Source of the DNA: Thermodesulfobacteriota bacterium
GTDB taxonomy: Bacteria; Desulfobacterota; WTBG01; JAGOGO01
Assembly (NCBI GenBank): GCA_026625185.1
Contig: CP113000.1
Coordinates: forward strand, 2,832,651-2,864,650
Reading direction: 5' to 3'
DNA length: 32,000 nucleotides
Positions 201 through 24,737 of the stretch are shown here, in pieces. Under the pieces are notes generated by a model. That model was not told the origin of the DNA. It ran no database searches and saw only the letters and a list, made by a program, of their open reading frames with translations. The stretch's first letter is position 1. Each line of letters starts with the position of its first letter. The translations under genes and the position numbers were made by a program.

Positions 201-1319
201 TCAATTGCATCCGGATGATGGCGCGCAACTCGATGGTCCGCAGCCCCCGGCTCGTGATGTTGCCGTAAATGCCTGCAACAATTTCGATTCCGTAACGTCC
301 CCGGTGACTGCCGCCATGCCTTTACCCTTGCTTGCGACGAGAATGGCAGGGGCCTGAACTTGAGTAGAGATCTTGGAGTAATCGGGGGAACTGACCGGCA
401 AGGTATATATTCCAAGGTTGATCTTGTTGGTTTTTAAAGTTTTTTGTGCCGACAGAACGGCGTCTTTTGTCTGGTCCTTAACCGCCTCATCCTTTTCACG
501 GGGAATGAAAATAAAAACAGCGTCTTGACTCAAAGCTACCTTGTTAAGGTCGCTGAGAGACTCCAGGTATTCCCCAATTTTGGGCACTGCCTTGGAATTT
601 TTAAGCTCTACTTTCTCTATTTTTTTCTCCTTTTTATTCTCAATGGGCTTTTGATCGACAACTTTAGAGGTTTCTGTAATTTCATTTTTGACAGGCATCT
701 CTGCTTTGTCGCCATTTAAAGGCTGGGTGGCGCTATCGGTCACTGGTTCAGGGGCCTTGGGTGCGACAGTAAAGCCGGATGTTTTTGCTGCGGCCAAATC
801 GTTAGATGATTTCCCTTTTGTGACCGATGTCTTGAAGATTAGGATGCCGATGACTACCAATAACACGATAAGGCTGACTGCAACCTTGATTCCCTTGGCT
901 TTCGGGGGGGCGTTGCAAGCGCACCCGGGTCCGCAGGAATTCATGCCGCTCTGTGGTTCGAGTGGAGATGGGGGGCTGTTAATGGGCGAATGCTCTGCGG
1001 TCACCACCTTGTCAATTCCTATAAATTGCAGAAGTTCACCCCTTAAGGGATAGCTCCCTCTGCTTACAATTACCCCATCCACCAAAATTAGGGGAAGACA
1101 TTTGTTGCCTTCTCGATTCAGAGCTTCCGCCACACGTTCCTCCCGGGCAAACTCGGCGGTATGTGAAGAGAGGTTGAATCGCTCTACCACCACGCCCTTT
1201 TTCCGCAACCAGTCCAGGTCACTGGAAAACCTCACCAAATCGGGATCAACTTTTGGTCCGCACACCACACTCGAACAGCACATCGGCGGGTCGTACACTT
1301 GCAGTTTGGTTTGTTGCAT
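201..1319 (-). CDS. arsD: ArsD metallochaperone domain fused to a transmembrane helix and a C-terminal domain of unknown function
   Basis: The N-terminal ~105 aa (VYDPPMCCSSVVCGPKVDPDLVRFSSDLDWLRKKGVVVERFNL...LPLILVDGVIV) match the ArsD Cys12-Cys13-Cys18 pattern. Then come CGPGCAC, a TM helix (IKVAVSLIVLLVVIGILIF), a K/E-rich linker, a ~130 aa domain and the tail GGCGPSSCAPSSGCN. SD AAAGGAG lies before the ATG at 1319. Confidence 0.75.
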   Translation of the reverse strand: MQQTKLQVYDPPMCCSSVVCGPKVDPDLVRFSSDLDWLRKKGVVVERFNLSSHTAEFAREERVAEALNREGNKCLPLILVDGVIVSRGSYPLRGELLQFIGIDKVVTAEHSPINSPPSPLEPQSGMNSCGPGCACNAPPKAKGIKVAVSLIVLLVVIGILIFKTSVTKGKSSNDLAAAKTSGFTVAPKAPEPVTDSATQPLNGDKAEMPVKNEITETSKVVDQKPIENKKEKKIEKVELKNSKAVPKIGEYLESLSDLNKVALSQDAVFIFIPREKDEAVKDQTKDAVLSAQKTLKTNKINLGIYTLPVSSPDYSKISTQVQAPAILVASKGKGMAAVTGDVTESKLLQAFTATSRAGGCGPSSCAPSSGCN

Positions 1320-1340
1320 CACTTTCTCCTTTAAATTAGA

Positions 1341-4337: not shown

Positions 4338-4670
4338 TTATTTTTCCTTTCTTGCCTCGAGATTGACGCCAAATTCCTTCCACTTCACAATGATCTGTTC
4401 TTTGGAATAAAATCCCTGGTGACGGAAAAGCTCCTTTCCCTCCGCATTGAAAAATATCTGCGTAGGGATAACCCGAACATTATATCGACTTATCGCTTCT
4501 TTGTTTTCAAAGATGTGGATGAAGACCACATCAAATCGTCCTCGGTATTCCTCTCGAAGCTCATCCAGGATGGGCGCCATCATTTTGCATGGTATGCAAT
4601 TTGTTGCGCCCAGATCAAGAAGGAGCGGAACCGGTTTCTTAACTTGAGCATTTGTTTCGACTCCGGCCAA
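4338..4670 (-). CDS. Thioredoxin-family protein (CIPC active site). A possible N-terminal membrane anchor is encoded out of frame at 4856-4749.
   Basis: LLLDLGATNCIPCKMMAPILDEL...VIPTQIFF is a thioredoxin fold. The track start is TTG with no SD. See the finding on the upstream anchor mini-ORF. Confidence 0.75.
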   Translation of the reverse strand: MAGVETNAQVKKPVPLLLDLGATNCIPCKMMAPILDELREEYRGRFDVVFIHIFENKEAISRYNVRVIPTQIFFNAEGKELFRHQGFYSKEQIIVKWKEFGVNLEARKEK

Positions 4671-6252: not shown

Positions 6253-7095
6253 TTACGAATTTATTGGATCTCTTAGCACTCCGAATTTTAAGGGAAAAAT
6301 TTCACCCCGGTATTTAATTTGGGGGACATTCTGATTGGATATCTCGGAAGCCCTCAACCATTCCTCCGTACCCAATTCACCTGATTTAAATACTATTCCC
6401 AGCGATTGCTCCATCCCTTTTCTAATAGCCGTTTCAATCTCACCGGGGCTAAGGTGACAGCCTAAAATTTCTTCTATTGAGGTTAAACGTGAAGTTAGCA
6501 TAACTCTCAAATTTTCCGGTGAAGCACCATTTGCCCCCCAAAGTTTGACCAGAGTTTCAACCTGAGATTCTAAAATAATAGATCCATGTTGCAACAAAGA
6601 GGTAGCATGCCAATACTGAGCGCTCCCGACAAATTTGTGATTATCGTGCACAATATCACCAACTCCACCGGATAAAAAACAAATATCCTTTTGGATTGTC
6701 TTTTCCTTCCCCTGCCGTAACTCCCCCTGGATTCCCAGTAATCGAAAGCCCATGAGTAGTCCTTCACAAATCAATTGATAGGCTGCGGCGGCCTCTTCAG
6801 GTATTCCATCCTGCTTGCCTGCGATAACCGAATACGTAAGATCCCCCTGGTGCAACACTGCCCGCCCTCCGCTCGGCCGTTGAACAACATCAATACCCAT
6901 TTTCCGGCAAACGCTTCTATCTATTTTGGGATCTCGTTGGAAATAACCAAGGGAAACCGCCGCTGGATGCCACTTATAAAACCGCAAGGTGGGAGGAGAT
7001 TTTTCCTCCGCATGCATAGTCAAAAGGGCTTGATCAATGGCCATGTTAAGGGCACCGGCCAAGTGACCATTATTCAGTAATCGCCAGCTTTTCAT
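6253..7095 (-). CDS. Lipoate-protein ligase / octanoyltransferase family protein (LplA/LipM-like)
   Basis: ALNMAIDQALL...LRFYKWHPAAVSLGYFQ...QRPSGGRAVLH...KFVGSAQ are BPL_LplA_LipB catalytic-domain motifs. It overlaps the lipA stop by 4 nt. Confidence 0.8.
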   Translation of the reverse strand: MKSWRLLNNGHLAGALNMAIDQALLTMHAEEKSPPTLRFYKWHPAAVSLGYFQRDPKIDRSVCRKMGIDVVQRPSGGRAVLHQGDLTYSVIAGKQDGIPEEAAAAYQLICEGLLMGFRLLGIQGELRQGKEKTIQKDICFLSGGVGDIVHDNHKFVGSAQYWHATSLLQHGSIILESQVETLVKLWGANGASPENLRVMLTSRLTSIEEILGCHLSPGEIETAIRKGMEQSLGIVFKSGELGTEEWLRASEISNQNVPQIKYRGEIFPLKFGVLRDPINS

Positions 7096-7973
7096 ACAAT
7101 TTCTTGATAAAATGCCGGAGCCTTATAAGAACTCCGTACAAGCGGTCCAGAAGCCACGCTTTTAAAGCCCAAAGCAAGGGCTAACCTTTGCCAATCTTCA
7201 AATTCCACAGGTTCCACATAACGAGCTACCGGCCAGTGTCGGATAGAAGGGGACAAATATTGACCAATCGTAAGCATGTCGCACCCTGCCTCCCTCAAAT
7301 CTTGAAGTACGTTCTCCACCTCTTGTTCGTCTTCACCCAGTCCTAACATTATTCCGGACTTAGTGACCAAACCCGGCATCACCGCCTTCGTTTGCCGTAA
7401 TATGTTAAGGGACAGCGTATAATGGGATCCCCCACGAACCATGGGATACAACCGCGGCACTGTTTCCAGATTATGTGCAAGGATGTCCGGTTGCGCAGCC
7501 AACACCTTGTCAACAGCCTGTTTTGACCCGCCAAAGTCAGGAATCAACAGCTCGACTTTACCGTTCGGACACTGTTCACGCACCATTTTGACCACACTCG
7601 CGTAATGACCTGCCCCACCATCCGGCAAGTCGTCTCTCGTGACGGACGTAATAACCACGTGATCAAGGCCCAGTGCGTTTACTGCCTCGGCAAGCCTTTC
7701 CGGCTCACCTTCATCCAAAGTTTTATCCGGGTTCCCATGGGTAACTGCACAAAAGGAACACCCCCGCGTACAAACATCTCCTAAAATCAAAAAAGTAGCC
7801 GTACCATTGGAAAAACACTCCCCCTGGTTTGGGCAATGAGCCTCCTCACAAACAGTGGAAAGGTGACGGCGTGCCAGAAGATTTCTGATATCTTCGATCA
7901 GCTGAGCACTCATTCCTTTTTTGGCCTCACGAACCTTATTGATTAACCAGTCTGGCGCCCTTACTTCCATCAT
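7092..7973 (-). CDS. lipA: Lipoyl synthase
   Basis: CEEAHCPNQGEC is the auxiliary cluster CX4CX5C and CTRGCSFC is the radical-SAM CX3CX2C. The ATG at 7973 overlaps the lpd stop (ATGA). Confidence 0.92.
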   Translation of the reverse strand: MMEVRAPDWLINKVREAKKGMSAQLIEDIRNLLARRHLSTVCEEAHCPNQGECFSNGTATFLILGDVCTRGCSFCAVTHGNPDKTLDEGEPERLAEAVNALGLDHVVITSVTRDDLPDGGAGHYASVVKMVREQCPNGKVELLIPDFGGSKQAVDKVLAAQPDILAHNLETVPRLYPMVRGGSHYTLSLNILRQTKAVMPGLVTKSGIMLGLGEDEQEVENVLQDLREAGCDMLTIGQYLSPSIRHWPVARYVEPVEFEDWQRLALALGFKSVASGPLVRSSYKAPAFYQEIV

Positions 7974-9373
7974 TTCACATCTGGCGGCATATGAATAGCC
8001 TGTCCGTGCAATGCCTGGCAAACCTCCAGCACTGCCTCAGAGAGAGTTGGATGGCTATGGATAGTATCCATAATAACCTGACTGGGCAGTCCCGCTTTCA
8101 TTGCCAGGGCTATCTCACCGATTAAGTCGGAGGCGTGCGGTCCAATAATATGCGCGCCTAAAATCTGATCGGTCTGAGCGTGAGTAATTATTTTCACTAA
8201 TCCCTCCGGTTCACCCATAGCCTGACCCATACCAAGCGATTTAAAGGGGAATCGTGCGGTTTTAACCGGATAGTGCTTGACCGCTTCTTCTTCCGAAAGC
8301 CCCACCGCGCCATACTCCGGTAACGTAAAGGCACATCGCGGGATAACCCGATAGTCCATTATAGCCCCACGACCTAAGGCGTTCTCCGCCGCGCACATGC
8401 CCTCGGCAAAAGCCACATGCGCCAAAAGCCAGCCGCCGATTACATCACCGGCCGCGGCTATACCGGGGAGATTGGTTTGCAGGTTTTCATCCACGATAAT
8501 GCGACCTTCATCCATAGCTACTCCAAGCTCTTCCAGACCAATGACATCGGTATTCAAGCGTCTTCCAACTGCCAATAATACTGTATCAGGTAAAAGCTCT
8601 TTCCCATTATTAAGAGTAACAACGACACCCCTCTCCGACTCCGAAACTGTCTCAATACTTGCGCTACAGATAATCTCTATCTTTCGTCTTTTCAATACTC
8701 CCTGCAGATAGGCCGCCATTTCAGCATCTTCAGCAGGCAAAATCCGGTCCTTTATCTCCACAATCGTCACCTGGGAACCAAGCTCACGAAAGACAGCTGC
8801 CATTTCCACCCCAATCATGCCTCCGCCCACTACCAGCAGATGAGATGGTAACCAGGAAATATTAAGCATTTCATCCGCCGGAAAGACGCGCGGGCTGGGA
8901 GGAAATACTGGTAGATTTGCTGGACGGGAGCCGGTGGCAATAACTATTTTTGGAGCTTCAAGCAGTTCCGTTTGTCCATCTTTTTTAACTTCAATCTTTC
9001 CACCACCGATCAGCCTCCCCCTTCCTTCAACCAGAGCAATCCGGTTAGCCTGGAAAAGACGCCCGACGCTGGCACGTAACCCTGACACGATTCGCTCCTT
9101 GCGGAGCATAATCGTTGCGATATCAGGCGAGACCTCGACCGGCTTAAAACCGAACTCTTTCGCACGGCGCATAGTCCGGGCCGCTTCCGCCGACGCCCGC
9201 ACAGTCTTCGTGGGGATACAGCCCCAATTGAGACAGATCCCTCCCAGAAATTTTTCCTCGATAACTGCCACCTTGGCTCCGAGCTGTGCCGCCCGGATCG
9301 CTCCCTGGTAGCCGGCCGGACCACCGCCTAAAAAGATAATGTCATAAGAATCGCTCACCGGGGAATTCCTCAC
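7970..9373 (-). CDS. lpdA: Dihydrolipoyl dehydrogenase
   Basis: GGGPAGY FAD site, redox disulfide GGICLNWGCIPTK, and C-terminal HSHPTLSE His-Glu pair. The GTG start overlaps the OsmC stop (GTGA). Confidence 0.9.
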   Translation of the reverse strand: MRNSPVSDSYDIIFLGGGPAGYQGAIRAAQLGAKVAVIEEKFLGGICLNWGCIPTKTVRASAEAARTMRRAKEFGFKPVEVSPDIATIMLRKERIVSGLRASVGRLFQANRIALVEGRGRLIGGGKIEVKKDGQTELLEAPKIVIATGSRPANLPVFPPSPRVFPADEMLNISWLPSHLLVVGGGMIGVEMAAVFRELGSQVTIVEIKDRILPAEDAEMAAYLQGVLKRRKIEIICSASIETVSESERGVVVTLNNGKELLPDTVLLAVGRRLNTDVIGLEELGVAMDEGRIIVDENLQTNLPGIAAAGDVIGGWLLAHVAFAEGMCAAENALGRGAIMDYRVIPRCAFTLPEYGAVGLSEEEAVKHYPVKTARFPFKSLGMGQAMGEPEGLVKIITHAQTDQILGAHIIGPHASDLIGEIALAMKAGLPSQVIMDTIHSHPTLSEAVLEVCQALHGQAIHMPPDVK

Positions 9374-9792
9374 TTAATGATTATCGTTGGCTTGATAATA
9401 ATTTCAGACTTTAAGGATTGATTTATCGTGGAATATTTTAAAGCCATATCAAGGGCCCGCTGCACAACTTCCCGGGTTTTATTTTTTACAACAATTTTGG
9501 GATATAAAGTAAGCCTCTTAAACCATGAGGTCCGGTCAATGAATTCTTCAACCTCGCCTTCAGCTTCACATTCTAAAGATATAAGTTCCATCTTAAAGCG
9601 CTCCATCGCCCAGATGACCATCATAAAATAACAGGTATTCGACGCCGATATAAAGGCGTCCTCAGGAGTAAGAACATTTTCCTTTCCGTATAGGTCAGGG
9701 GGAGCAGAGAACTCCATTTCCACACCATTCTGACACCACGTATACCCAAGGTGACCACCGCGCCATTCAACTTTATTTTTATACAGTGACAT
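9370..9792 (-). CDS. OsmC/Ohr-family protein, apparently a 1-Cys variant
   Basis: ...LTPEDAFISASNTCYFMMV keeps the first conserved Cys. Where OsmC/Ohr carry the second Cys (..CP.S..L), the sequence reads ALKYSTINQSL. Confidence 0.7.
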   Translation of the reverse strand: MSLYKNKVEWRGGHLGYTWCQNGVEMEFSAPPDLYGKENVLTPEDAFISASNTCYFMMVIWAMERFKMELISLECEAEGEVEEFIDRTSWFKRLTLYPKIVVKNKTREVVQRALDMALKYSTINQSLKSEIIIKPTIIIK

Positions 9793-9805
9793 GGTTTTCC
9801 TTTCC

Positions 9806-10219
9806 CTAATCGTTTTCCAGGACTTCTTTTACCGATTTGGCAATTTCGTCCGCTACCGCCTGAATCGCAGCCTGATCCTCATCACCAAAGTGTCTCAATT
9901 TTTTTGGGGCAGAGAGGTTGTGTTTCTTCAGAATATCGGGGACAACCAACGATTTGCTCGGTTTCCCGGAAAACATTTCTGTGCTCTTGGCCGCGCAGAG
10001 TTTCTCACAGCCGTCCACGGTTATGGTGGGATACTTTTTTGCAAATTTCCTTTCTTCTTCCCCACCGGCAATAAACAGAGGCAAACAGATCGTCACTGTT
10101 TCATTCGGCTTAAGATCTGTGAGTACCTTGCGACAAGCGATTCGGGAAATTGTGCCTTCCGGCAACTCTTCACCGCTGCACGACACCATCCCTATCTTTG
10201 TTACCTGGATATCCATCAT
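9806..10219 (-). CDS. DGC-domain putative zinc-binding protein (paralog 1)
   Basis: MVSCSGEE...ICLPLF...ITVDGCEKLCA carries the DGC motif and flanking cysteines. Confidence 0.7.
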   Translation of the reverse strand: MMDIQVTKIGMVSCSGEELPEGTISRIACRKVLTDLKPNETVTICLPLFIAGGEEERKFAKKYPTITVDGCEKLCAAKSTEMFSGKPSKSLVVPDILKKHNLSAPKKLRHFGDEDQAAIQAVADEIAKSVKEVLEND

Positions 10220-10632
10220 TGTTCCTCCTGTACCGCCAGTTCATCTATAACGGTTGCTAATTCGTCAGCAGCAATGGCCGCCAATCTGCGGCCAGTCTCA
10301 TCAAGCTCGCTGATCCCCTCTGGCTTCATATCTTTGTGAGCTTTGTAAAAATCGATTGTCTGAAAACTCCTGGCCACGTTAACCCCTTGCGATTCTGCGC
10401 TCTTTCGCGCGCACTCCTTTGGACATCCGTCAATGGTAATTACCGGGTTTTCTTTTACCAACTGCTTGGTTTCCGTATCTTCAATCACTAATTTTGCCAG
10501 ACAAGTAGTCACCGCACTATTTGGTCTTACTCGTTCTACAAGTTCATAGGTGGTCTCACGGGCAAGGGCGCCGAAAACTTTCCCAATACCACTGCAGGGG
10601 AGCACTACCACCTTTTTATTTTTTTTCTCCAT
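10216..10632 (-). CDS. DGC-domain putative zinc-binding protein (paralog 2)
   Basis: VVVLPCSGIGKVFGALARE...TTCLAKL...ITIDGCPKECA. There is an ATGA overlap with paralog 1. Confidence 0.7.
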   Translation of the reverse strand: MEKKNKKVVVLPCSGIGKVFGALARETTYELVERVRPNSAVTTCLAKLVIEDTETKQLVKENPVITIDGCPKECARKSAESQGVNVARSFQTIDFYKAHKDMKPEGISELDETGRRLAAIAADELATVIDELAVQEEQ

Positions 10633-11080
10633 ATAGTTTCCTCGCTTCTTCTAAAACTTTTTTCTTCATTAATTCAAAGTAGTCCCAATCCTTAAGCAAT
10701 TCATTTTTGTCAGCCTCAAAATCGAGAAGTTCAATCCGGTAAATCCAGCCAGAGTCATACGGGGCCTCGTTAATGAGATAAGGGCTTGCCTCGATCTCCT
10801 GGTTAACCTCAACAATTGTCCCCGTTACCGGTGAAATGATGTTAAACGTGGCTTTAATCGTCTCGATCTTCCCAAGTTCTTGACCTCGTTTTACTGTTAT
10901 ACCCGGGCTAATGGTTTCCAGAAATGCCACATCGCCTTTAAGTTTTTGAAGAAAATCGCTAACGCCTATGACGGCAACATGGTTAACAATGTTCGCCCAG
11001 AAATCTTCGGGACTATACCAATACCCGGTTTTGACCTTAAAAATAAATTTTTCATGGGTATATTCCAAAAATTCTTCCAT
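10616..11080 (-). CDS. gcvH: GcvH-like lipoyl carrier protein
   Basis: VAVIGVSDFLQKLKGDVAFLE...GKIETIKATFNIISPVTGTIVEVN matches the H-protein lipoyl-lysine motif E(S/T)(V/I)KA...SP(V/I)(S/T)G. SD GAGG precedes the ATG. Confidence 0.8.
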   Translation of the reverse strand: MEEFLEYTHEKFIFKVKTGYWYSPEDFWANIVNHVAVIGVSDFLQKLKGDVAFLETISPGITVKRGQELGKIETIKATFNIISPVTGTIVEVNQEIEASPYLINEAPYDSGWIYRIELLDFEADKNELLKDWDYFELMKKKVLEEARKLYGEKK

Positions 11081-11093
11081 ATGTTACCTCGGT

Positions 11094-11438
11094 CTATGGG
11101 TTAAGAGTTTTTCCTACTTCCTTCACAATTTTGTTAATGATAATGCTCCCGGCAAACCTGGCTTCTCCATTGATAACCACTAATGGTGTTGGGAATTTTT
11201 GGTTCACCAAAAGCTGGCCTAACCCGCTCTTTCTTTCATCCGGTGATTCGCGCAAATCAATATATTCAACAGTGATCTGATGAGGATAACTTTCTTCCAA
11301 TGCGGTTCTAAGCTCTTTTACTTTCTGCTGTATTAGCACCGGAAACTCGGGGCTACAGGCTATACTTCCTCACGTACAGCCATCAGGATTGCCCGGCAAA
11401 TTAAGGATCTTTATTGATACCGGATCTTTTTCTTTCAT
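11094..11438 (-). CDS. Selenoprotein candidate: thioredoxin-fold ArsD/YuzD-like protein with an in-frame TGA (residue 23)
   Basis: SD AAGGAGAG lies 6 nt before the ATG at 11438. It reads MKEKDPVSIKILNLPGNPDGCT-TGA(11372-11370)-GSIACSPEFPVLIQQKVKELRTALEESYPHQITVEYIDL...PLVVINGE. The TGA is contiguous and in frame with track ORF 11094..11339. Confidence 0.6.
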
Positions 11439-11496
11439 TGCATCTCTCCTTACGATAGTGTTTGTATGGTTTTCCACCCAAGTATACCCCCCCCCA

Positions 11497-13613: not shown

Positions 13614-14447
13614 TTACGCTTGTTTTGGTTTCACTCCGCAAACCCTAATGCTTACCACCGCCCGTATAATTTCTCCCACCTTATCGCGCGGTACGCCAAA
13701 ACTTTCACCGATCCCTTTAGCAGTGGGATCATTGGTCCAAGAATCTAAGGAAAGCGAGGACTCACCAATGATCCTGACATCCTGAAATCCGGCCATATCA
13801 ATTCCCCCGAGGTATTCTTGCTTCAATATGGCGCCGGAAAGGCACCCGACATAAGCTGCTATTGAACCCTTTACGCTCTCAGGAAGTTCTCTCAATAGAA
13901 CCATATCAGTGACCATCAGCCTGCCGCCTGATTTCAATACCCGGAAAGCTTCATTAAAGACTCTTCTTTTATCAGGCGAAAGATTAATGACACAATTTGA
14001 AATGATGGCATCCACGAAATTATCCGCCACCGGAAGATTCTCGATCTCTCCCAGCCTGAACTCAACGTTTCCGTAGTCACCCTTTCTCGCGTTTTCTCTT
14101 GCCTTATCAATCATCTCGGGGGTCATATCCACGCCAATCACCTGGCCGGCCTCTCCCACTTTCTTAGCGGCAAGAAAACAATCAAACCCCGCGCCTGAGC
14201 CGAGGTCAAGAACAATCTCGCCCTCTCGCAGAGATGCAAGTACCACCGGATTGCCGCACCCAAGCCCCAGGTTTGCGCCCTCCGGAACTGTCTCCAGTTC
14301 TTCGTCGTTATATCCTATTTTCTTACTTATTTCAAGCACATCCGTGCTTACACAGCATGGATTCGGCGTGCCCCAGCAGGATCCCCCTCCCTTCGCAACG
14401 CCGGCATAACCTTCCCTGACCGCTTTTTTAATGTCTTCCGGTTTAAT
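13614..14447 (-). CDS. arsM: Arsenite S-adenosylmethionine methyltransferase
   Basis: VLDLGSGAGFDCF (SAM motif I), VIGVDMTPEMI, ISNCVINLSPDK, GCLSGA. The N-terminal KPEDIKKAVREGYAGVAKGGGSCWGTPNPCC lies upstream of the track start. There is no ATG/GTG/TTG; SD GGAGGTG lies 7 nt before ATT 14447 (or CTG 14453). Confidence 0.85.
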   Translation of the reverse strand: MKPEDIKKAVREGYAGVAKGGGSCWGTPNPCCVSTDVLEISKKIGYNDEELETVPEGANLGLGCGNPVVLASLREGEIVLDLGSGAGFDCFLAAKKVGEAGQVIGVDMTPEMIDKARENARKGDYGNVEFRLGEIENLPVADNFVDAIISNCVINLSPDKRRVFNEAFRVLKSGGRLMVTDMVLLRELPESVKGSIAAYVGCLSGAILKQEYLGGIDMAGFQDVRIIGESSLSLDSWTNDPTAKGIGESFGVPRDKVGEIIRAVVSIRVCGVKPKQA

Positions 14448-14588: not shown

Positions 14589-15000
14589 TTATAATGTATT
14601 GGCAACTGTTTGGGCTACTGTTTGAGCGTGTTCCTTGATTTGAGCCTTTGACTTTTCGTTTTTATCGAATTCATACAGTCTGTAAGCAACAATTATTTCT
14701 GGTTTAAGTTCTGCCTTTACCCCTTTCATTGTAAGATTGAAAAAACATTTACTAAGGCAGCCTTCCAGGGCAATGACTTTTTTGGCATTTTTCACTAAGT
14801 TTCCCGGGGCGGTATCTTTTTTAAGCGAACCCCCCCCCACTGACCAACACTGTTTTTCCCGGCGCGATTGAATCACATAAAATATTTGCCGCTTCTCTTA
14901 CGATTTCGCCATTAATACAATCCCCCTCACAGCATATCAGGGCAATGGATTCTGATAGCTGCTCTTCCCCTATGATTCCACTACCTTTTTTTTCAGTCAT
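14589..15000 (-). pseudogene. DGC-domain protein (paralog 3) split by a frameshift at a G9 tract
   Basis: The N-part is MTEKKGSGIIGEE..ALICCEGDC..APGKTVLVSGGG and the C-part is SLKKDTAPGNLVKNAKKVIALEGCLSKC.... They are in different frames and join at the C9 run 14830-14838. SD GGAGGAG precedes the ATG at 15000. Confidence 0.65.
14830..14838. repeat. C9 (G9 on the coding strand) homopolymer inside the DGC paralog 3
   Basis: Counted directly: gcgaa-ccccccccc-actgacc. Confidence 0.9.
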
Positions 15001-15132
15001 TTTTTGAATCTCCTCCAATCCTGCGCCGATGAAGTTCATCCGCGCCACAGTGTGTTTTTATCTTCTCCTGCCGTAATGACTTATAATACAAACTCAGAAA
15101 TTCTCCATCTCGATACGGTCAACAATGCTATC

Positions 15133-16619: not shown

Positions 16620-16961
16620 TCACTCCTTACAACAACCTATTTTTACCTCTTTAGATAGATTTCCCGTAGCCGGTTGTTCTAATCTCTTGGCAACCCTACT
16701 TCTGGTCAGTACCTCCCCAAATTGAGCCATAACCCTGCCTCCGGAGATAGCCATGACGATGGCTTGAACCGTCCCTATCTCCTGATCGGTAATTCCGGCC
16801 TCCTTGGCAACGCCAAGGTAATTTTCCATTCACGGATAACAGCCAATGGCCATTGATGCAGCCATGGAGACCAGGAGAGTTGTTTTGGGTTCTAAAATTT
16901 CATTGTTTCGGGTTGATTTGTAAAAATCACTAAAAGCTTTAGCCTGTCTCCCTGGAAGCAT
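16620..16961 (-). CDS. AhpD-like/CMD-family selenoprotein (CxxU active site)
   Basis: SD GGAGA lies before the ATG at 16961. It reads MLPGRQAKAFSDFYKSTRNNEILEPKTTLLVSMAASMAIGCYP-TGA(16832-16830)-MENYLGVAKEAGITDQEIGTVQAIVMAISGG.... The TGA occupies the second Cys of the CMD CxxC motif, and a SECIS-like hairpin follows. Confidence 0.8.
16802..16818 (-). promoter_or_regulatory. SECIS-like hairpin for the TGA at 16832-16830
   Basis: The RNA CCUUGGC-GUU-GCCAAGG has a perfect 7-bp stem and a G/U-containing loop, starting 11 nt after the UGA. Confidence 0.65.
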
Positions 16962-20587: not shown

Positions 20588-23500
20588 TTATTTTTCCTTT
20601 TGCCCGGTTGTTCTTTTCATCCATATCCCGCCTTCACTGAAACACTGCCAGCCCCAGCGAAGCCATTTTAAAAGTGAACCGGCAAGCCAGAGCGCCCACA
20701 AAAGCATCAAAATTCGAAACACAAAAAGCGGTAAAGATAAAACCCAGGGCTGAGGCATCAAAGCTCCAATACGGTCTTGCGTCCAGTGAAGGTAGAAATT
20801 TGAGGAACCGTTTCCAGCGATTTGCATATCCGGAATCCCCAAAAGACCAGCTTCAACTGCAAGGTAAAGGCAGATCAATGCCGCAACCGTCAAAACCACC
20901 AGTAGGAGCTGAGATACATTAAAGGAAAAACGTTGGTTTTCAGGTATAGGTTTTAATCGTCGTAGTCCGAGAGCAAGCAGCCACCCTAAAATAATTATTG
21001 CCATCATGGGAGTTACCTGGGTTATTCCCAAGCCTAACAAAAACCAATGGGTGGTTTTAAGAGGAGTCAAGGTAAGCCGACCTAAAGCGACTGCTGCCAA
21101 TATCACCACCACCACGTAACTCCAGAAAAGTACTGCTGGGCCTAACCGAGGTCCCCCGGCAAATAAAATCCACCGATTTTGCGGCATTTTAAAAACCATA
21201 TCCGCATTCACCGCCTGAGGACCCACGCTAACCAATGGGGACCGGATAATCGGTGGGGATGAAGTGGGTTGCTGCCACTTAACCTCTACTCGTTGCAGAC
21301 CAGGCGCAAGAGGGATAATGACTTCCTTGCCTTCTCTTTTTATTGGCTGGGTTTTATTATTTATGATTACCGCCATTATTTTCGCATCCGCAGGCACGAT
21401 TACGCGGTGTTCCCCTCCTTTACTGGTCCGAACTTTAAAAAGAAGTTCACCATTGGTATAACGCTCTCCAGGGGTGAGGTCCAGTTTTGCTTCTTCGATG
21501 GTTAAGGTTGATCCGGGAATTGCCTGGGGCCGACTCAGAGTAATGATGACCTTTTCTCCCGGCCACGGTTGCCACAGGGGCATCCAATAGTTCGCTTGGT
21601 CCTGATGATGGATAACCGGAATACCTGATAATTCACAATGCCAGATTGGACTGGCATCCAAAATCCAGGTCTCAATCCAAGGAACCTCCTTTGGGGCCAG
21701 CAATATAATGGTTGGTGACTCTTGAAGGGTTGATGACCAGGTAACCTCAGTTTCATTTGCCGCTATCGTAATCCGCACCCGGCTCTTTTCCACCTGAATT
21801 CCCGGAGAGGTGACCGATTCCCGGGCAATTAGGGGTATAAAAAGCGTAGCTGGTGTGTCCGGTGGTGTCACTCGTCTCAAGGTGTTTTTCACCTTCCAGT
21901 TTAATCCCAGAGTTAAAACCCGCTCGAGCTGAAAAAAAGGAGGTATTGCGGCCTCAGGCTTGGCTTGACTTTCCGGAAGGTTTTTCTCTTCTCGGGTTAA
22001 CTGAAGCGACGACTCGACTTGGCCGTCCGGCTGGACGCCTTGAACCGTCCATCCATCGGTTTCAAACGTTACCTTCCGTGGTCTGAGCGGCAAAACCACC
22101 GAAAATGATCTCTCCGCCGGCACTCTCCCATACAGAGTAACCACATGGAAACCTTCAGGAATCAGGACCCACAGAACTCCCGCATGGTCTTTCATAAGGC
22201 CTCGTGCCGGTTGTCCGTTAAGAAGAACCTCTTCCGGCATCCATGATTTCAGTGATCCGGGCAACGGCACCGCAGTCTCCACCCCGGCATCAACATTAAA
22301 AAGGATACGCAAACTATTTTTGTTCGCAGTAAGGAGCATTTTGGGGCTATCAGCGCAATTGGGAAGGCATTCCGGCTTTTCCAAGAGCCGTTCCTGAAGC
22401 TTTTGAAGGAGTTCAGGAGAGGGATAACCAGCATCTTGTTCCGCTCTCGTACTGGTTGCACCCAAAGCTAATACTATAAACAAAACCAAACTCACTATTT
22501 TATTGCCGGGCAATTTCCAGGTTCGAACACTCAGGAGAAAAAAGATTAAAGAAACCAAGAACCCAACCCTTAAAAAAGAGAGAATAAGGTTAGTAAACGG
22601 GGAAAGTAAAAATAATCGAATTTCCTGTTCCTTGGAAACGGGGCCGGTCCAAGTCAAAGGGATAGCCCGCCATTTCCACGTGGGAAGTCCAGGCCCGGTC
22701 TGATTAAGAGCGTGAGGGTCTTGAGTTAACGCAGTTAAGTTTTGATATTGTTGTTGGAACTCCCCTTTTAACTTCGGTTTGCCGATAAAAAAGGAATCTT
22801 TTTTTTCTCGTGGTGCTTGGACCTGCGGAACGGGGACCAGCTGCTCTGACCCCGCTTGCATCTCTTCTTTTGACGACAACTCCTCCATAACTGTTTGAGG
22901 CATCATTTTTGATGGACCAACAGTAATGCCCATTGGTGGGTAAATGTCCTCTAACTGCGGGTAAATTCCCCAGCGCACTTGTTTCACCACGAATGGTATT
23001 GAAAAAATAAGAAGAAAAATAATGGAGCCTATGCGCCAGAGGTTAACCACTTTTTTCGCCCAGCCCTCAGGCAGAAACCGCAAAAGAGCTAAAGCAGCCA
23101 GGAGATTAAGCCAGACCAAATGGGGCGCTCCGGGTTCATGATAGGTAAGACCAACCGCAAAAAGCGCCAGTATTCCCCATTTCCAATTCCACAGTTTATA
23201 AATTACTAAGCTGATTATCAAAACCAAAAAGAGGTCAAGAAGACTCCATTGTTTAACCCAGGTTCCCTCAATTCCATCTATTCCCGAGGCAATAAGCAGC
23301 TTCCACCCCGGCGGAAGATTTAAAACCCCGGATACTGACTCAAAGTCATGGTCCCATCCAACTGCAGGAATTTTCCAAAGTGAAGTCTCAAGCCGGCCTT
23401 CAGATTCAAGTTGTAGGTGTCCTTTGCGAAGCTCAATTCCTGGTTTTTTCCCTTTGCCGTGACCCGTTATCAGTTGTTCGACCCCCTCAATAGTTACTCT

Positions 23501-24661
23501 GCCCAGTTGACTTGGGGGATTTATCGCCAAATACCATTGCCGGCTCAAAGTGCCGGTGACCTGGTCCTTAGTCGTAAACCCTCGGCCATCAAAATCTAAC
23601 CACCAGGTCCGGTAAAGAAAGAGCTGGTCGGGAGCGGGGTCCGGATCACCGCGCCGTATTTCCTTAAAAATCATTTCAAGACCGGGATGCATAATAAAAG
23701 TAGGAAAGTTTTGCCATTGGGAAGGGACATCGGTCTGTTTGGGATCAATGGGTGAGACACCCTCGATTTTTACCATGCGGAGTTGATTTTGGGCTTGAAA
23801 TGACCAGACTTCATCTTGTAAAGTTTTCTTAAGCGGAGTTAACTTTGAAATCGGACCCTCAAAACGGGAAATAATCTGTATTTCCCATTGACCGGGACGG
23901 ACTTGAAGAATAATATCACCTTCTGGACTGAGCCGCGCCGGAAGAGGACTTTGAATATTCAAGGGAACCGCGCCTTCCAGCAGCACCCCAGGCAACGTAA
24001 TTTCTCTCGGCTGACCGGATACATTGATCTTTAAAAGATTGTTGACCTCGAGGGGAATGGCATCTTTAATTAAACGAAAAACCCGACACTCCACACTATC
24101 TTCTTTTCCCAATCCTCCTTCTTTCTTTTTGAGCCACAAGCGACCGCTGTTCTCAATAAACGGAAATTGAATGGGATTTCCATTAATGGACAGGCTGACA
24201 AGTCCGCTTTCCGGAGGCACATTGAGCCATTCCGGCATTTCCTTCCAGGTAAATACCCCCTCGGTCCGGTGAACCCCAGGGGTTAAGTAAACAGCAGGGA
24301 TATTGTTTTTCCCCACCACGGGAGCTGGTTTGCCGTCAACCTTTACTTCTGCGGGCCAGGTTTCGGGATTTCCCGGCAAGGGAACCCATGCCTTAATAAA
24401 AACACGCCATTCCTGATTGAAACCACCTTTATTATTTTCCAGATTCAATGTGAGGCGGGAAGGCCAAAGGCATTGACACCGTTCTCCGTTGTTGTAATAG
24501 GTAGGGCAGAGTTTATCTTCCACATTATGAAGCACCCACCCCTTCCATTGTTCAAGGTTGGGAGGGATCTCACCCCGTTCCGGTTTAGCAGCAAAAGGGG
24601 AACCAATATTCACGAAAAACCAAGCGACTATCGCCAGTAAAAAATAGATTTTGTTTTTCAT
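20588..24661 (-). CDS. Very large (about 1357 aa) multi-pass membrane protein of unknown function with an internal duplication
   Basis: SD GGAGGAGG precedes the ATG at 24661. Signal/anchor is MKNKIYFLLAIVAWFFV. Two extracytoplasmic modules are each followed by TM clusters. Confidence 0.6.
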   Translation of the reverse strand: MKNKIYFLLAIVAWFFVNIGSPFAAKPERGEIPPNLEQWKGWVLHNVEDKLCPTYYNNGERCQCLWPSRLTLNLENNKGGFNQEWRVFIKAWVPLPGNPETWPAEVKVDGKPAPVVGKNNIPAVYLTPGVHRTEGVFTWKEMPEWLNVPPESGLVSLSINGNPIQFPFIENSGRLWLKKKEGGLGKEDSVECRVFRLIKDAIPLEVNNLLKINVSGQPREITLPGVLLEGAVPLNIQSPLPARLSPEGDIILQVRPGQWEIQIISRFEGPISKLTPLKKTLQDEVWSFQAQNQLRMVKIEGVSPIDPKQTDVPSQWQNFPTFIMHPGLEMIFKEIRRGDPDPAPDQLFLYRTWWLDFDGRGFTTKDQVTGTLSRQWYLAINPPSQLGRVTIEGVEQLITGHGKGKKPGIELRKGHLQLESEGRLETSLWKIPAVGWDHDFESVSGVLNLPPGWKLLIASGIDGIEGTWVKQWSLLDLFLVLIISLVIYKLWNWKWGILALFAVGLTYHEPGAPHLVWLNLLAALALLRFLPEGWAKKVVNLWRIGSIIFLLIFSIPFVVKQVRWGIYPQLEDIYPPMGITVGPSKMMPQTVMEELSSKEEMQAGSEQLVPVPQVQAPREKKDSFFIGKPKLKGEFQQQYQNLTALTQDPHALNQTGPGLPTWKWRAIPLTWTGPVSKEQEIRLFLLSPFTNLILSFLRVGFLVSLIFFLLSVRTWKLPGNKIVSLVLFIVLALGATSTRAEQDAGYPSPELLQKLQERLLEKPECLPNCADSPKMLLTANKNSLRILFNVDAGVETAVPLPGSLKSWMPEEVLLNGQPARGLMKDHAGVLWVLIPEGFHVVTLYGRVPAERSFSVVLPLRPRKVTFETDGWTVQGVQPDGQVESSLQLTREEKNLPESQAKPEAAIPPFFQLERVLTLGLNWKVKNTLRRVTPPDTPATLFIPLIARESVTSPGIQVEKSRVRITIAANETEVTWSSTLQESPTIILLAPKEVPWIETWILDASPIWHCELSGIPVIHHQDQANYWMPLWQPWPGEKVIITLSRPQAIPGSTLTIEEAKLDLTPGERYTNGELLFKVRTSKGGEHRVIVPADAKIMAVIINNKTQPIKREGKEVIIPLAPGLQRVEVKWQQPTSSPPIIRSPLVSVGPQAVNADMVFKMPQNRWILFAGGPRLGPAVLFWSYVVVVILAAVALGRLTLTPLKTTHWFLLGLGITQVTPMMAIIILGWLLALGLRRLKPIPENQRFSFNVSQLLLVVLTVAALICLYLAVEAGLLGIPDMQIAGNGSSNFYLHWTQDRIGALMPQPWVLSLPLFVFRILMLLWALWLAGSLLKWLRWGWQCFSEGGIWMKRTTGQKEK

Positions 24662-24737
24662 TCTTTCCTCCTCCAAAAGGGGATAAAATAAATTTTGGAT
24701 AGCCACTATGACGTAATTACCGGAAAACCGTTATTTT

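Follow-up and report, generated by a model that had tools for sequence, protein, structure and literature searches.

Two open reading frames (ORFs) lie on either side of an in-frame TGA on the minus strand of a stretch of 32,000 nucleotides from a Thermodesulfobacteriota bacterium (assembly GCA_026625185.1, contig CP113000.1, positions 2,832,651 to 2,864,650), which we refer to as the window. The question raised by this locus is whether the two ORFs represent a short functional product with a non-coding upstream frame, the remains of a decayed gene, or a single gene in which the TGA is read as selenocysteine (Sec). The last possibility had been put forward in an earlier reading made from the letters alone (the sequence-only reading), which joined the two track ORFs into one gene with a probable Sec codon. 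Our analyses support this joining, and we consider it likely that positions 11438-11094 (minus strand) form one gene for a 114-residue YuzD/DUF1462 thioredoxin-fold protein, whose codon 23, the TGA, would be decoded as Sec. The elements of this gene are the following.

11094 to 11438, minus strand: full coding sequence (CDS) of the YuzD-like (DUF1462) thioredoxin-fold protein, 114 codons (translation, Cys homologs, Pfam, dN/dS)
11444 to 11451, minus strand: Shine-Dalgarno (SD) sequence AAGGAGAG (read from the sequence; the ortholog L014 has an equivalent ATG start)
11376 to 11378, minus strand: C21 codon (TGT), first Cys of the C-x-C/C-x-U motif, invariant in relatives
11370 to 11372, minus strand: in-frame TGA, proposed Sec23, aligned to an invariant Cys
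11355 to 11357, minus strand: C28 codon (TGT), clade-specific third Cys
11337 to 11339, minus strand: GTG without an SD upstream, start of the 81-aa product of the gene callers, an annotation artefact
11328 to 11358, minus strand: putative selenocysteine insertion sequence (SECIS) hairpin, core 11355-11334 with an outer CUG/CAG extension (-8.9 kcal/mol, bSECIS-type criteria)

The frame starting at the ATG 11438-11436 crosses the TGA at 11372-11370 and ends with the TAG 11096-11094, which amounts to 114 codons including position 23. It encodes MKEKDPVSIKILNLPGNPDGCT, followed by the TGA and by GSIACSPEFPV... (GSIACSPEFPVLIQQK...), and continues without a break into the ORF 11094..11339; the motif residues of the joined product are C21, U23 (TGA) and C28. 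The SD sequence at 11451-11444 is located 5 nt before the ATG, with its GGAG at a distance of 7 nt, whereas the GTG of the ORF 11094..11339 is preceded by GAGTTTCCG and lacks an SD. In the ORF listing the gene is split into an 81-aa piece from GTG 11339 and a 64-aa piece ending at the TGA, and the 81-aa product is called by the NCBI, JGI and Logan gene callers alike; 81 aa is also the length of the database entries P0001 and P0175. SD, ATG, TGA, the join and the GTG without an SD were all found exactly as described in the sequence-only reading, which was equally right in placing the gene 13 nt upstream of a lipoyl operon: this is the distance between the TAG 11096-11094 and the ATG (11080) of a GcvH-like gene.

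We compared the gene with relatives from species-representative genomes (genome scan, nine loci) and from metagenomes (metagenome scan, 80 loci), and counted residues in a census of 85 distinct sequences. All nine genome-scan loci, which come from Syntrophobacteraceae-like or 'deltaproteobacterial' metagenome-assembled genomes (MAGs), read G-C-[AS]-C and therefore have a Cys opposite the TGA (9/9), as do 80 of 80 metagenome-scan loci. In the census both position 21 and position 23 are Cys in 85/85 sequences, i.e. the C-x-C is invariant, which also answers the check on residue 23 that had been suggested earlier. The nearest other lineages, L004 (88% identity) and L014 (87%), both carry TGT at the TGA position, Gly at position 28 and Met at position 34, and in L014 the start ATG equivalent to 11438 is intact. 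The Cys-form relatives are all 113-120 aa long. Further TGA forms within the window's clade were found neither among the nine loci of the genome scan nor among the 80 loci of the metagenome scan.

Conservation extends to the part of the protein that precedes the TGA. A stretch V-x-[VI]-K-I-L-[DN]-L-P-G is conserved in full-length 113-aa homologs, and in the comparison with L014 the proportions of nonsynonymous (pN) and synonymous (pS) differences are 0.097 and 0.49 for codons 1-22 as well as 0.063 and 0.26 for codons 24-114. The overall dN/dS ratio (omega) against L014 is 0.19 with no indels, and that of neighbouring genes ranges from 0.07 to 0.31. Judging from these ratios, the sequence before the TGA is coding, and purifying selection acts on both sides of this codon. 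Homologs that begin at the equivalent of 11339 without conserved upstream sequence, which the sequence-only reading had named as evidence against itself, were not what we encountered: homologs align over the upstream part, and the 22 N-terminal residues are conserved. The TGA itself is shared by about ten near-identical assemblies (the window, two NCBI MAGs, one Logan run and six JGI metagenomes), which differ by 0-3 mismatches each, some of them by nearby single-nucleotide polymorphisms (SNPs). The TGA is neither an error nor a transient allele.

An imperfect hairpin had been noticed at 11335-11354, and a stem-loop within about 40 nt of the TGA had been proposed as a check. Indeed, this hairpin is real and has a fuller form, the core of which (11355-11334) reads UAGC-C-CCG [AGUUUC] CGG-U-GCUA; its stem starts 14 nt and its apical loop 22 nt past the UGA. 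Together with the outer extension (11358-11328) it reaches -8.9 kcal/mol, and a G occupies the second loop position. The hairpin after TGA 11372-11370 thereby fits the bSECISearch-type description of a SECIS, in which the apical loop lies 16-37 nt from the UGA, one of the first two loop nucleotides is a G and the free energy amounts to about -7.5 kcal/mol or lower, and it is the dominant fold of a 45-nt stretch, with 42% of the ensemble. A qualifying hairpin is absent in the Cys orthologs L004 and L014. The five stem differences from these Cys orthologs (AGT>AGC, CCT>CCC, CCT>CCG, ATG>GTG and TTA>CTA) all strengthen the pairing in the TGA lineage. When the same peptide was recoded synonymously with the codon usage of the window, 8 of 600 sequences (1.3%) were as good (mean -1.3, sd 2.3), and synonymous differences from L014 accumulate in codons 24-40, where pS is 0.62 vs 0.18 downstream (Fisher p ~0.006). 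Orthologs that are 87% identical, and in which TGT instead of TGA and a few mostly synonymous changes separate the form without the hairpin from the form with it, offer a rare close-up of the birth of a SECIS within a CDS. On its own, the hairpin constitutes moderate evidence only.

A second gene of the window bears on the question of whether the organism decodes Sec at all.

16620 to 16961, minus strand: AhpD/CMD-like selenoprotein gene with C-Y-P-U, TGA at 16832-16830 (NCBIfam, hairpin)
16802 to 16818, minus strand: SECIS of this gene, CCUUGGC GUU GCCAAGG, starting 11 nt after the UGA

This gene, located 5.4 kb from the YuzD-like gene, reads ...GCYP-TGA-MENY..., with CxxU replacing the CxxC of its family, and the TGA is followed by a hairpin with a perfect 7-bp stem and a GUU loop. 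Its best NCBIfam matches are the AhpD domains of the curated selenoproteins MduS, ArsM/AhpD and GSU3128, and AhpD-like CxxU proteins are a catalogued selenoprotein family (PMC13188914). The claim of a second TGA gene with a textbook SECIS is thus borne out (16961-16620), and because of the CxxU and the canonical SECIS the organism very probably decodes Sec. All assemblies annotate the AhpD-like gene as two separate ORFs (43 and 69 aa), an annotation that is mended once the Sec codon is recognized. TGA is the stop codon of 11 of the 28 genes of the window; the genetic code is therefore standard.

In-frame TGA codons in the same loop between beta1 and alpha1 are not restricted to the window's clade. 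An exhaustive profile search yielded only 51 clusters at 50% identity, several of which have 73-85 aa and start at helix alpha1; the DNA of these short forms revealed such codons at five loci from three or four other DUF1462-like subfamilies.

L094: ...DIPAGSLR-U-GSCSTAAGCG..., UxxC
L095: ...GPIT-U-GACS..., UxxC
L096 and its ortholog L099 (Syntrophomonadaceae): GGCMG-U-PSAASCG, CxxU
L098: ...PLGGCG-U-GSKRD..., C-x-U-G-S as in the window's motif

Each of the five TGAs is followed after 11-15 nt by a hairpin with G/U in the loop, for example UGCCGCA-GGU-UGCGGCA in L094 and UGACUCA-AGUUG-UGAGUCA in L098, and all five proteins are annotated in truncated form with 78-85 aa. Curated NCBIfam selenoprotein models match none of the TGA-bearing DUF1462-like proteins. 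DUF1462, YuzD and PF07315 are absent from the text and the family table of a 2026 review (PMC13188914), the BSepDB main text mentions neither DUF1462 nor YuzD, and publications pairing DUF1462 or YuzD with selenoprotein terms were not found in a literature listing that is not exhaustive. Since TGA forms occur in several DUF1462-like subfamilies, the Sec-containing YuzD-like/DUF1462 proteins look like an uncatalogued selenoprotein family. Conversion of Cys to Sec in thiol redox proteins is a general trend in Deltaproteobacteria (PMC1794560).

Two further loci, L097 and L100, were rejected as TGA genes, since they proved to be Cys/His-rich forms whose starts had been mis-called. These forms (P0033, P0118, P0139, L097 and L100) carry a Cys- and His-rich insertion in the beta1-alpha1 loop (e.g. 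GGCDCGCDHHHGHDQGPGHGHHHHD, GGC-x-C-G-C-His-rich), the composition of which suggests a metal-binding site; in this subfamily an internal ATG is often taken as the start by gene callers.

With respect to the protein itself, Pfam places DUF1462 (YuzD family, PF07315) on residues 41-108, corresponding to profile positions 23-92, with 26.8 bits (gathering cut-off 25), and DUF1462 is matched at E < 0.01 by 13 of 16 clade members. Profile positions 1-22, the N-terminal CxxC region, do not align, and the motif here is a C-x-C/C-x-U in a longer loop. These profile matches support a membership in DUF1462/YuzD that is distant and borderline, yet above the gathering threshold. In line with this, the truncated 81-aa product from a Thermodesulfobacteriota MAG is named 'DUF1462 family protein' in a large protein database, and JGI uses the product name YuzD for some relatives. 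Seven full-length homologs of 113-117 aa (51-58% identity) in the protein database align across the whole joined sequence, including the part before the TGA. By contrast with these DUF1462 matches, Thioredoxin_3 (PF13192) was matched only below threshold (E = 0.15, 12.6 bits vs a cut-off of 24.8, C-terminal 24 residues), none of the NCBIfam models matches the YuzD-like protein, and a sequence search of the PDB returned nothing beyond sub-threshold matches to KaiB and the Mj0307 thioredoxin. An AlphaFold (AF2) model of a full-length homolog, with a mean predicted local distance difference test score of 79.9, has the order beta1-alpha1-beta2-alpha2-beta3-beta4-alpha3, and its Cys motif sits in a low-confidence loop between beta1 and alpha1. 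In Foldseek searches thioredoxins rank first, and ArsD (3MWH) follows at rank 8 (TM 0.55/0.62) among many similar scores. The predicted model and its fold matches thus support a thioredoxin-fold protein. The fold and the YuzD link proposed in the sequence-only reading are both upheld; its proposed relationship to ArsD is not. An ArsD match was obtained neither in Pfam (E <= 1) nor in NCBIfam (E <= 0.1), an hhalign comparison with the window's own genuine ArsD gave a probability of only 4.5%, and the fold match to ArsD, one of many, is uninformative because generic thioredoxins score equally well or better. The window protein belongs to the YuzD-like thioredoxin-fold proteins as a distant member and is no homolog of ArsD.

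This leaves the function of the protein. By analogy with ArsD, it could be an As(III) metallochaperone, which would coordinate the metalloid three-fold via C21, U23 and C28 and hand it over to ArsM, Acr3 or ArsA, an alternative that concerns the function only and that we regard as rather doubtful. It is in agreement with the ars context (ArsR, Acr3, ArsM and ArsD nearby), which is conserved in relatives, with a Cys motif in a Gly-rich, flexible loop of low model confidence after beta1 as in ArsD, and with a third Cys that is found in the census at position 28 (34/85) or position 40 (27/85), never at both. Moreover, the GGC-x-C-G-C and His-rich stretch of another subfamily has a metal-binding look in the same loop, the window's own ArsD has a G-C-A-C stretch after its ArsD domain, and Sec ligands are documented in metal and metalloid resistance proteins (PMC13188914). 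The failed ArsD comparisons speak against it, and so do the 24 of 85 members with Cys at neither 28 nor 40, which are left with two Cys, and the Gly28 of the closest Cys orthologs. The tightest linkage, in addition, is to GcvH-like, Lpd, LipA, LplA and OsmC genes and not to an efflux ATPase, and a redox relay fits at least equally. The triad C21-x-U23-x4-C28, presented earlier as a family feature, is, according to the alignment, clade-specific. As both the ArsD homology and the conserved triad fail, the As(III)/thiol metallochaperone function of the sequence-only reading is a suggestion drawn from gene context. The alternation of the Cys between positions 28 and 40 suggests two interchangeable sites for a resolving or third-ligand Cys.

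Several observations weigh against reading the TGA as a Sec codon. The hairpin is imperfect, with a C.U mismatch in its stem, and an equally good hairpin follows 9.4% of random TGA trinucleotides in the window. By hairpin strength the gene ranks 11th of 76 among GC-richer family members, a ranking confounded by GC content (60% in the family vs 47%) and therefore replaced by the synonymous-recoding null and the window-wide TGA background. The RNAfold z-scores of the post-TGA stretch, -0.07 (76 nt) and -1.3 (45 nt), are non-significant, in a test that is insensitive because the SECIS of the AhpD-like gene scores only -1.5. Neither an Rfam scan of the complete window at gathering thresholds nor a permissive one of 11200-11480 revealed a SECIS or another relevant family. 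Within the window's clade the TGA is confined to one near-clonal species, and because all TGA carriers of the clade belong to this species there is no covariation support for the hairpin. Furthermore, tRNA-Sec was not found within the window, in which no tRNA lies, and P0072, the closest full-length relative of L094 (73% identity), has Trp at the TGA position.

Part of these observations would also be expected if the TGA were a fixed nonsense mutation (TGT/TGC to TGA) in a recent pseudogene, or in a gene crippled to an 81-aa fragment, with a coincidental hairpin. A single substitution turns a Cys codon into TGA, only the one near-clonal species has the TGA form and the 89 further clade loci all have Cys, the background rate of the hairpin is 9.4%, and a TGA/TGG polymorphism exists elsewhere in the same population. 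Nevertheless, we consider a nonsense mutation unlikely. It would have had to strike exactly the invariant motif Cys among 114 codons, in an ORF that is otherwise intact on both sides (omega 0.19, no indels vs L014), and to become fixed across about ten datasets while the rest of a strongly conserved gene cassette stayed intact. In addition, the five substitutions relative to the Cys orthologs all contribute to the hairpin, in a region where synonymous changes cluster; the same island contains a second recoded gene, the AhpD-like one, and other subfamilies have Sec in the corresponding beta1-alpha1 loop.

That the annotation is right, with a start at GTG 11339, a functional 81-aa product and a non-coding upstream frame, is highly improbable in spite of the agreement between the gene callers at NCBI, JGI and Logan. 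This GTG lacks an SD, whereas a strong SD and an ATG are present at 11451-11436, codons 1-22 are conserved at the protein level (pN/pS ~0.2), and every Cys-form relative has 113-120 aa. Without strand beta1 and the invariant C-x-C, the 81-aa product is unable to adopt the thioredoxin fold. A sequencing or assembly error, for which nothing but the general possibility can be put forward, is refuted to the point of being negligible by the identical TGA in independent NCBI (two MAGs), Logan and six JGI assemblies, some with nearby SNPs.

Decoding of the TGA as Sec therefore remains the reading that we favour, and its mechanism, consisting of UGA, an in-ORF SECIS and SelB, is the ordinary bacterial route. 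SelB with Sec-tRNA(Sec) would bind the hairpin 11355-11334 with its loop AGUUUC, 14 nt after the UGA, and would deliver Sec at codon 23 in competition with RF2. In the protein, Sec would replace the second Cys of the invariant C-x-C in the flexible beta1-alpha1 loop, probably as the result of a recent, lineage-specific conversion of Cys to Sec, with orthologs of 87-88% identity that keep TGT and lack the hairpin. The centre formed by C21 and U23, with C28, is probably a selenol/thiol redox or As(III)-handling site, and might exchange electrons, or As(III), with a dihydrolipoyl-GcvH-like protein kept reduced by Lpd. The constant linkage to lipoyl genes favours a role of the YuzD-like protein in a redox relay, and a metalloid-binding role may apply in view of the alternative third Cys (28 or 40) and the His-rich variants. 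Currently the gene is annotated everywhere as an 81-aa 'DUF1462 family protein' without an active site, an entry that is corrected by recognition of the Sec codon.

The gene is the first of an eight-gene cassette, which occupies 6253-11438 (minus strand) of the window and was compared with the related loci L005-L093.

10616 to 11080, minus strand: GcvH-like lipoyl-carrier gene (Pfam GCV_H, 98 bits)
6253 to 10632, minus strand: remaining cassette with DGC, DGC, OsmC-like, Lpd, LipA and LplA genes (Pfam, gene calls, synteny)
201 to 1322, minus strand: ArsD homolog, 373 aa (NF033727, 113 bits)

By tblastn across 90 related loci, the order YuzD-like, GcvH-like, DGC, DGC, OsmC-like, Lpd, LipA, LplA is near-invariant. 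The GcvH-like gene adjoins the YuzD-like gene in 82 of the 90; the later cassette genes were counted less often, which is consistent with many contigs being short or ending there. ArsM, DsbD, Acr3 and ArsR usually precede the cassette. From its gene content and surroundings, the cassette gives the impression of a self-contained redox module with a lipoyl protein, devoted to the handling of arsenic, and a description of an ars-linked lipoyl cassette was not found in the searchable literature. Dihydrolipoyl groups bind arsenite avidly, and lipoyl dithiols are classic arsenite targets; because of this, a dedicated lipoyl system that includes a selenol adaptor would, if true, add a new and testable element to arsenic handling under anaerobic conditions. 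It is possible, rather than probable, that all parts hold together: an uncatalogued Sec family with at least four independent origins (CxU, CxxU, UxxC), a YuzD-like protein that in the window's clade is the entry component of a lipoyl system embedded in ars operons, a very recent SECIS birth, and a dihydrolipoyl protein that together with a selenol/thiol adaptor binds, reduces or hands over arsenic species.

Other genes of the window were inspected along the way. The ArsD homolog consists of an ArsD domain (residues 5-127), a stretch SCGPGCAC with the same G-C-A-C as the YuzD-like consensus, and about 230 further residues without a Pfam match. Upstream of the YuzD-like gene lie two Thioredoxin_3 (PF13192) genes (11853-11614 and 12340-12104, minus strand), which are ArsE-like in the usage of the P. 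mercurii preprint, and just upstream there are also an ArsF-family gene (NF040494; 13084-13503, minus strand) and a DsbD_2 membrane protein. By family assignment, this group resembles organoarsenical (ArsEFG-type) resistance genes. A third DGC-like gene (14589-15048, minus strand) is broken up into two ORFs, overlapping each other, at a stretch of nine G residues (14838-14830); its sequence is the same in all assemblies compared and would be compatible with a pseudogene produced by a frameshift, with a phase-variable tract or with an assembly error in the homopolymer. A 1372-aa ORF (20588-24706, minus strand) has no Pfam match; encoded next to it are a protein of 1011 aa, with a domain resembling spermidine synthase, and a protein similar to PMT_2 glycosyltransferases.

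With regard to additional TGA codons or selenoprotein candidates in the window, three were rejected. In the thioredoxin ORF 4670-4338 the motif is an ordinary CIPC; the gene (4338-4670, minus strand; PF00085, NCIPC) lies between DsbD_TM and Acr3 genes, contains no in-frame TGA, and is called by JGI and missing from the NCBI and Logan gene calls. The Trx_3-like ORF 16421-16215 is bounded by TAG and is devoid of a Cys motif. Strain L109 has TGG in place of the TGA 14468-14466 upstream of ArsM, and since this TGA also precedes the start of the ArsM profile, it belongs to leader sequence and is not a Sec codon. ArsM is annotated from an internal GTG (14339, 241 aa), whereas the match to the ArsM profile begins with KPEDIKK near 14444. 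Between the TGA and the profile start there is no ATG, GTG or TTG; an in-frame ATT (14447-14445, minus strand) is located 6 nt after the strong SD GGAGGTGG (14461-14454), and from this arrangement the non-canonical ATT is likely to be the start of ArsM. In strain L109, with TGG at the 14468 position, JGI calls a 314-aa ArsM product. A Cys-form CMD paralog (HCQPC) is found at 1341-1580.

Among known systems, the closest by family is YuzD/DUF1462 of Firmicutes ('disulfide oxidoreductase YuzD'), which shares the size of about 110 aa, the beta-alpha-beta-alpha-beta-beta-alpha topology and the Cys motif between beta1 and alpha1. The C-terminal two thirds of the window protein match the YuzD Pfam model, while the N-terminal part of the model, which holds the CxxC of YuzD itself, does not align. 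The window's clade differs from YuzD by a C-x-C (here C-x-U) in a longer Gly-rich loop, by its Thermodesulfobacteriota and Syntrophobacteraceae-like hosts and by its context of ars genes and a lipoyl cassette.

The loop after beta1 carries the CxxC in thioredoxins and a Cys cluster in ArsD. ArsD (PF06953; PDB 3MWH) and the window protein have in common the thioredoxin fold, the Cys cluster in this loop and the occurrence in ars operons, and the U23-x4-C28 spacing of the window's lineage equals C13-x4-C18 of ArsD, as had been pointed out in the sequence-only reading. However, the three-Cys As(III) site of ArsD (C12, C13, C18) has no counterpart, the vicinal Cys-Cys being absent in the YuzD-like clade, and the two families show no detectable sequence homology, with a triad that is not conserved in the window's family.

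Like the window protein, the known Trx UxxC, Grx UxxC, Brachyspira Sec.1/Sec.2 and HUIPC Trx-like selenoproteins combine a small thioredoxin fold with Sec at a redox motif, and they resemble the window gene in an in-ORF SECIS just past the UGA, in split or truncated annotations and in the dominance of Cys homologs (PMC5330540; PMC13188914). The 'Thioredoxin-like Sec.1/Sec.2' proteins of Brachyspira (CxU/UxC) belong to PF13192, a family different from that of the window protein, and their Sec, unlike that of the window protein, is located in an extension at the N-terminus, apart from the CxxC of the thioredoxin (PMC5330540).

As for the cassette as a whole, the comparison is with lipoyl-dependent thiol systems. 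The mycobacterial Lpd-DlaT-AhpD-AhpC system is a lipoyl-to-dithiol relay, and Ohr/OsmC peroxidases can depend on lipoyl groups. As in the Mycobacterium relay and in lipoyl-dependent Ohr/OsmC, the window encodes Lpd, a lipoyl carrier, a small dithiol adaptor and an OsmC-type peroxidase together, which by analogy suggests a flow from NADH via Lpd, the lipoyl protein and the adaptor to an acceptor. Compared to the mycobacterial relay, the carrier is GcvH-like and not an E2, the adaptor is YuzD-like with C-x-C/C-x-U, possibly together with DGC, and the system is embedded in ars genes.

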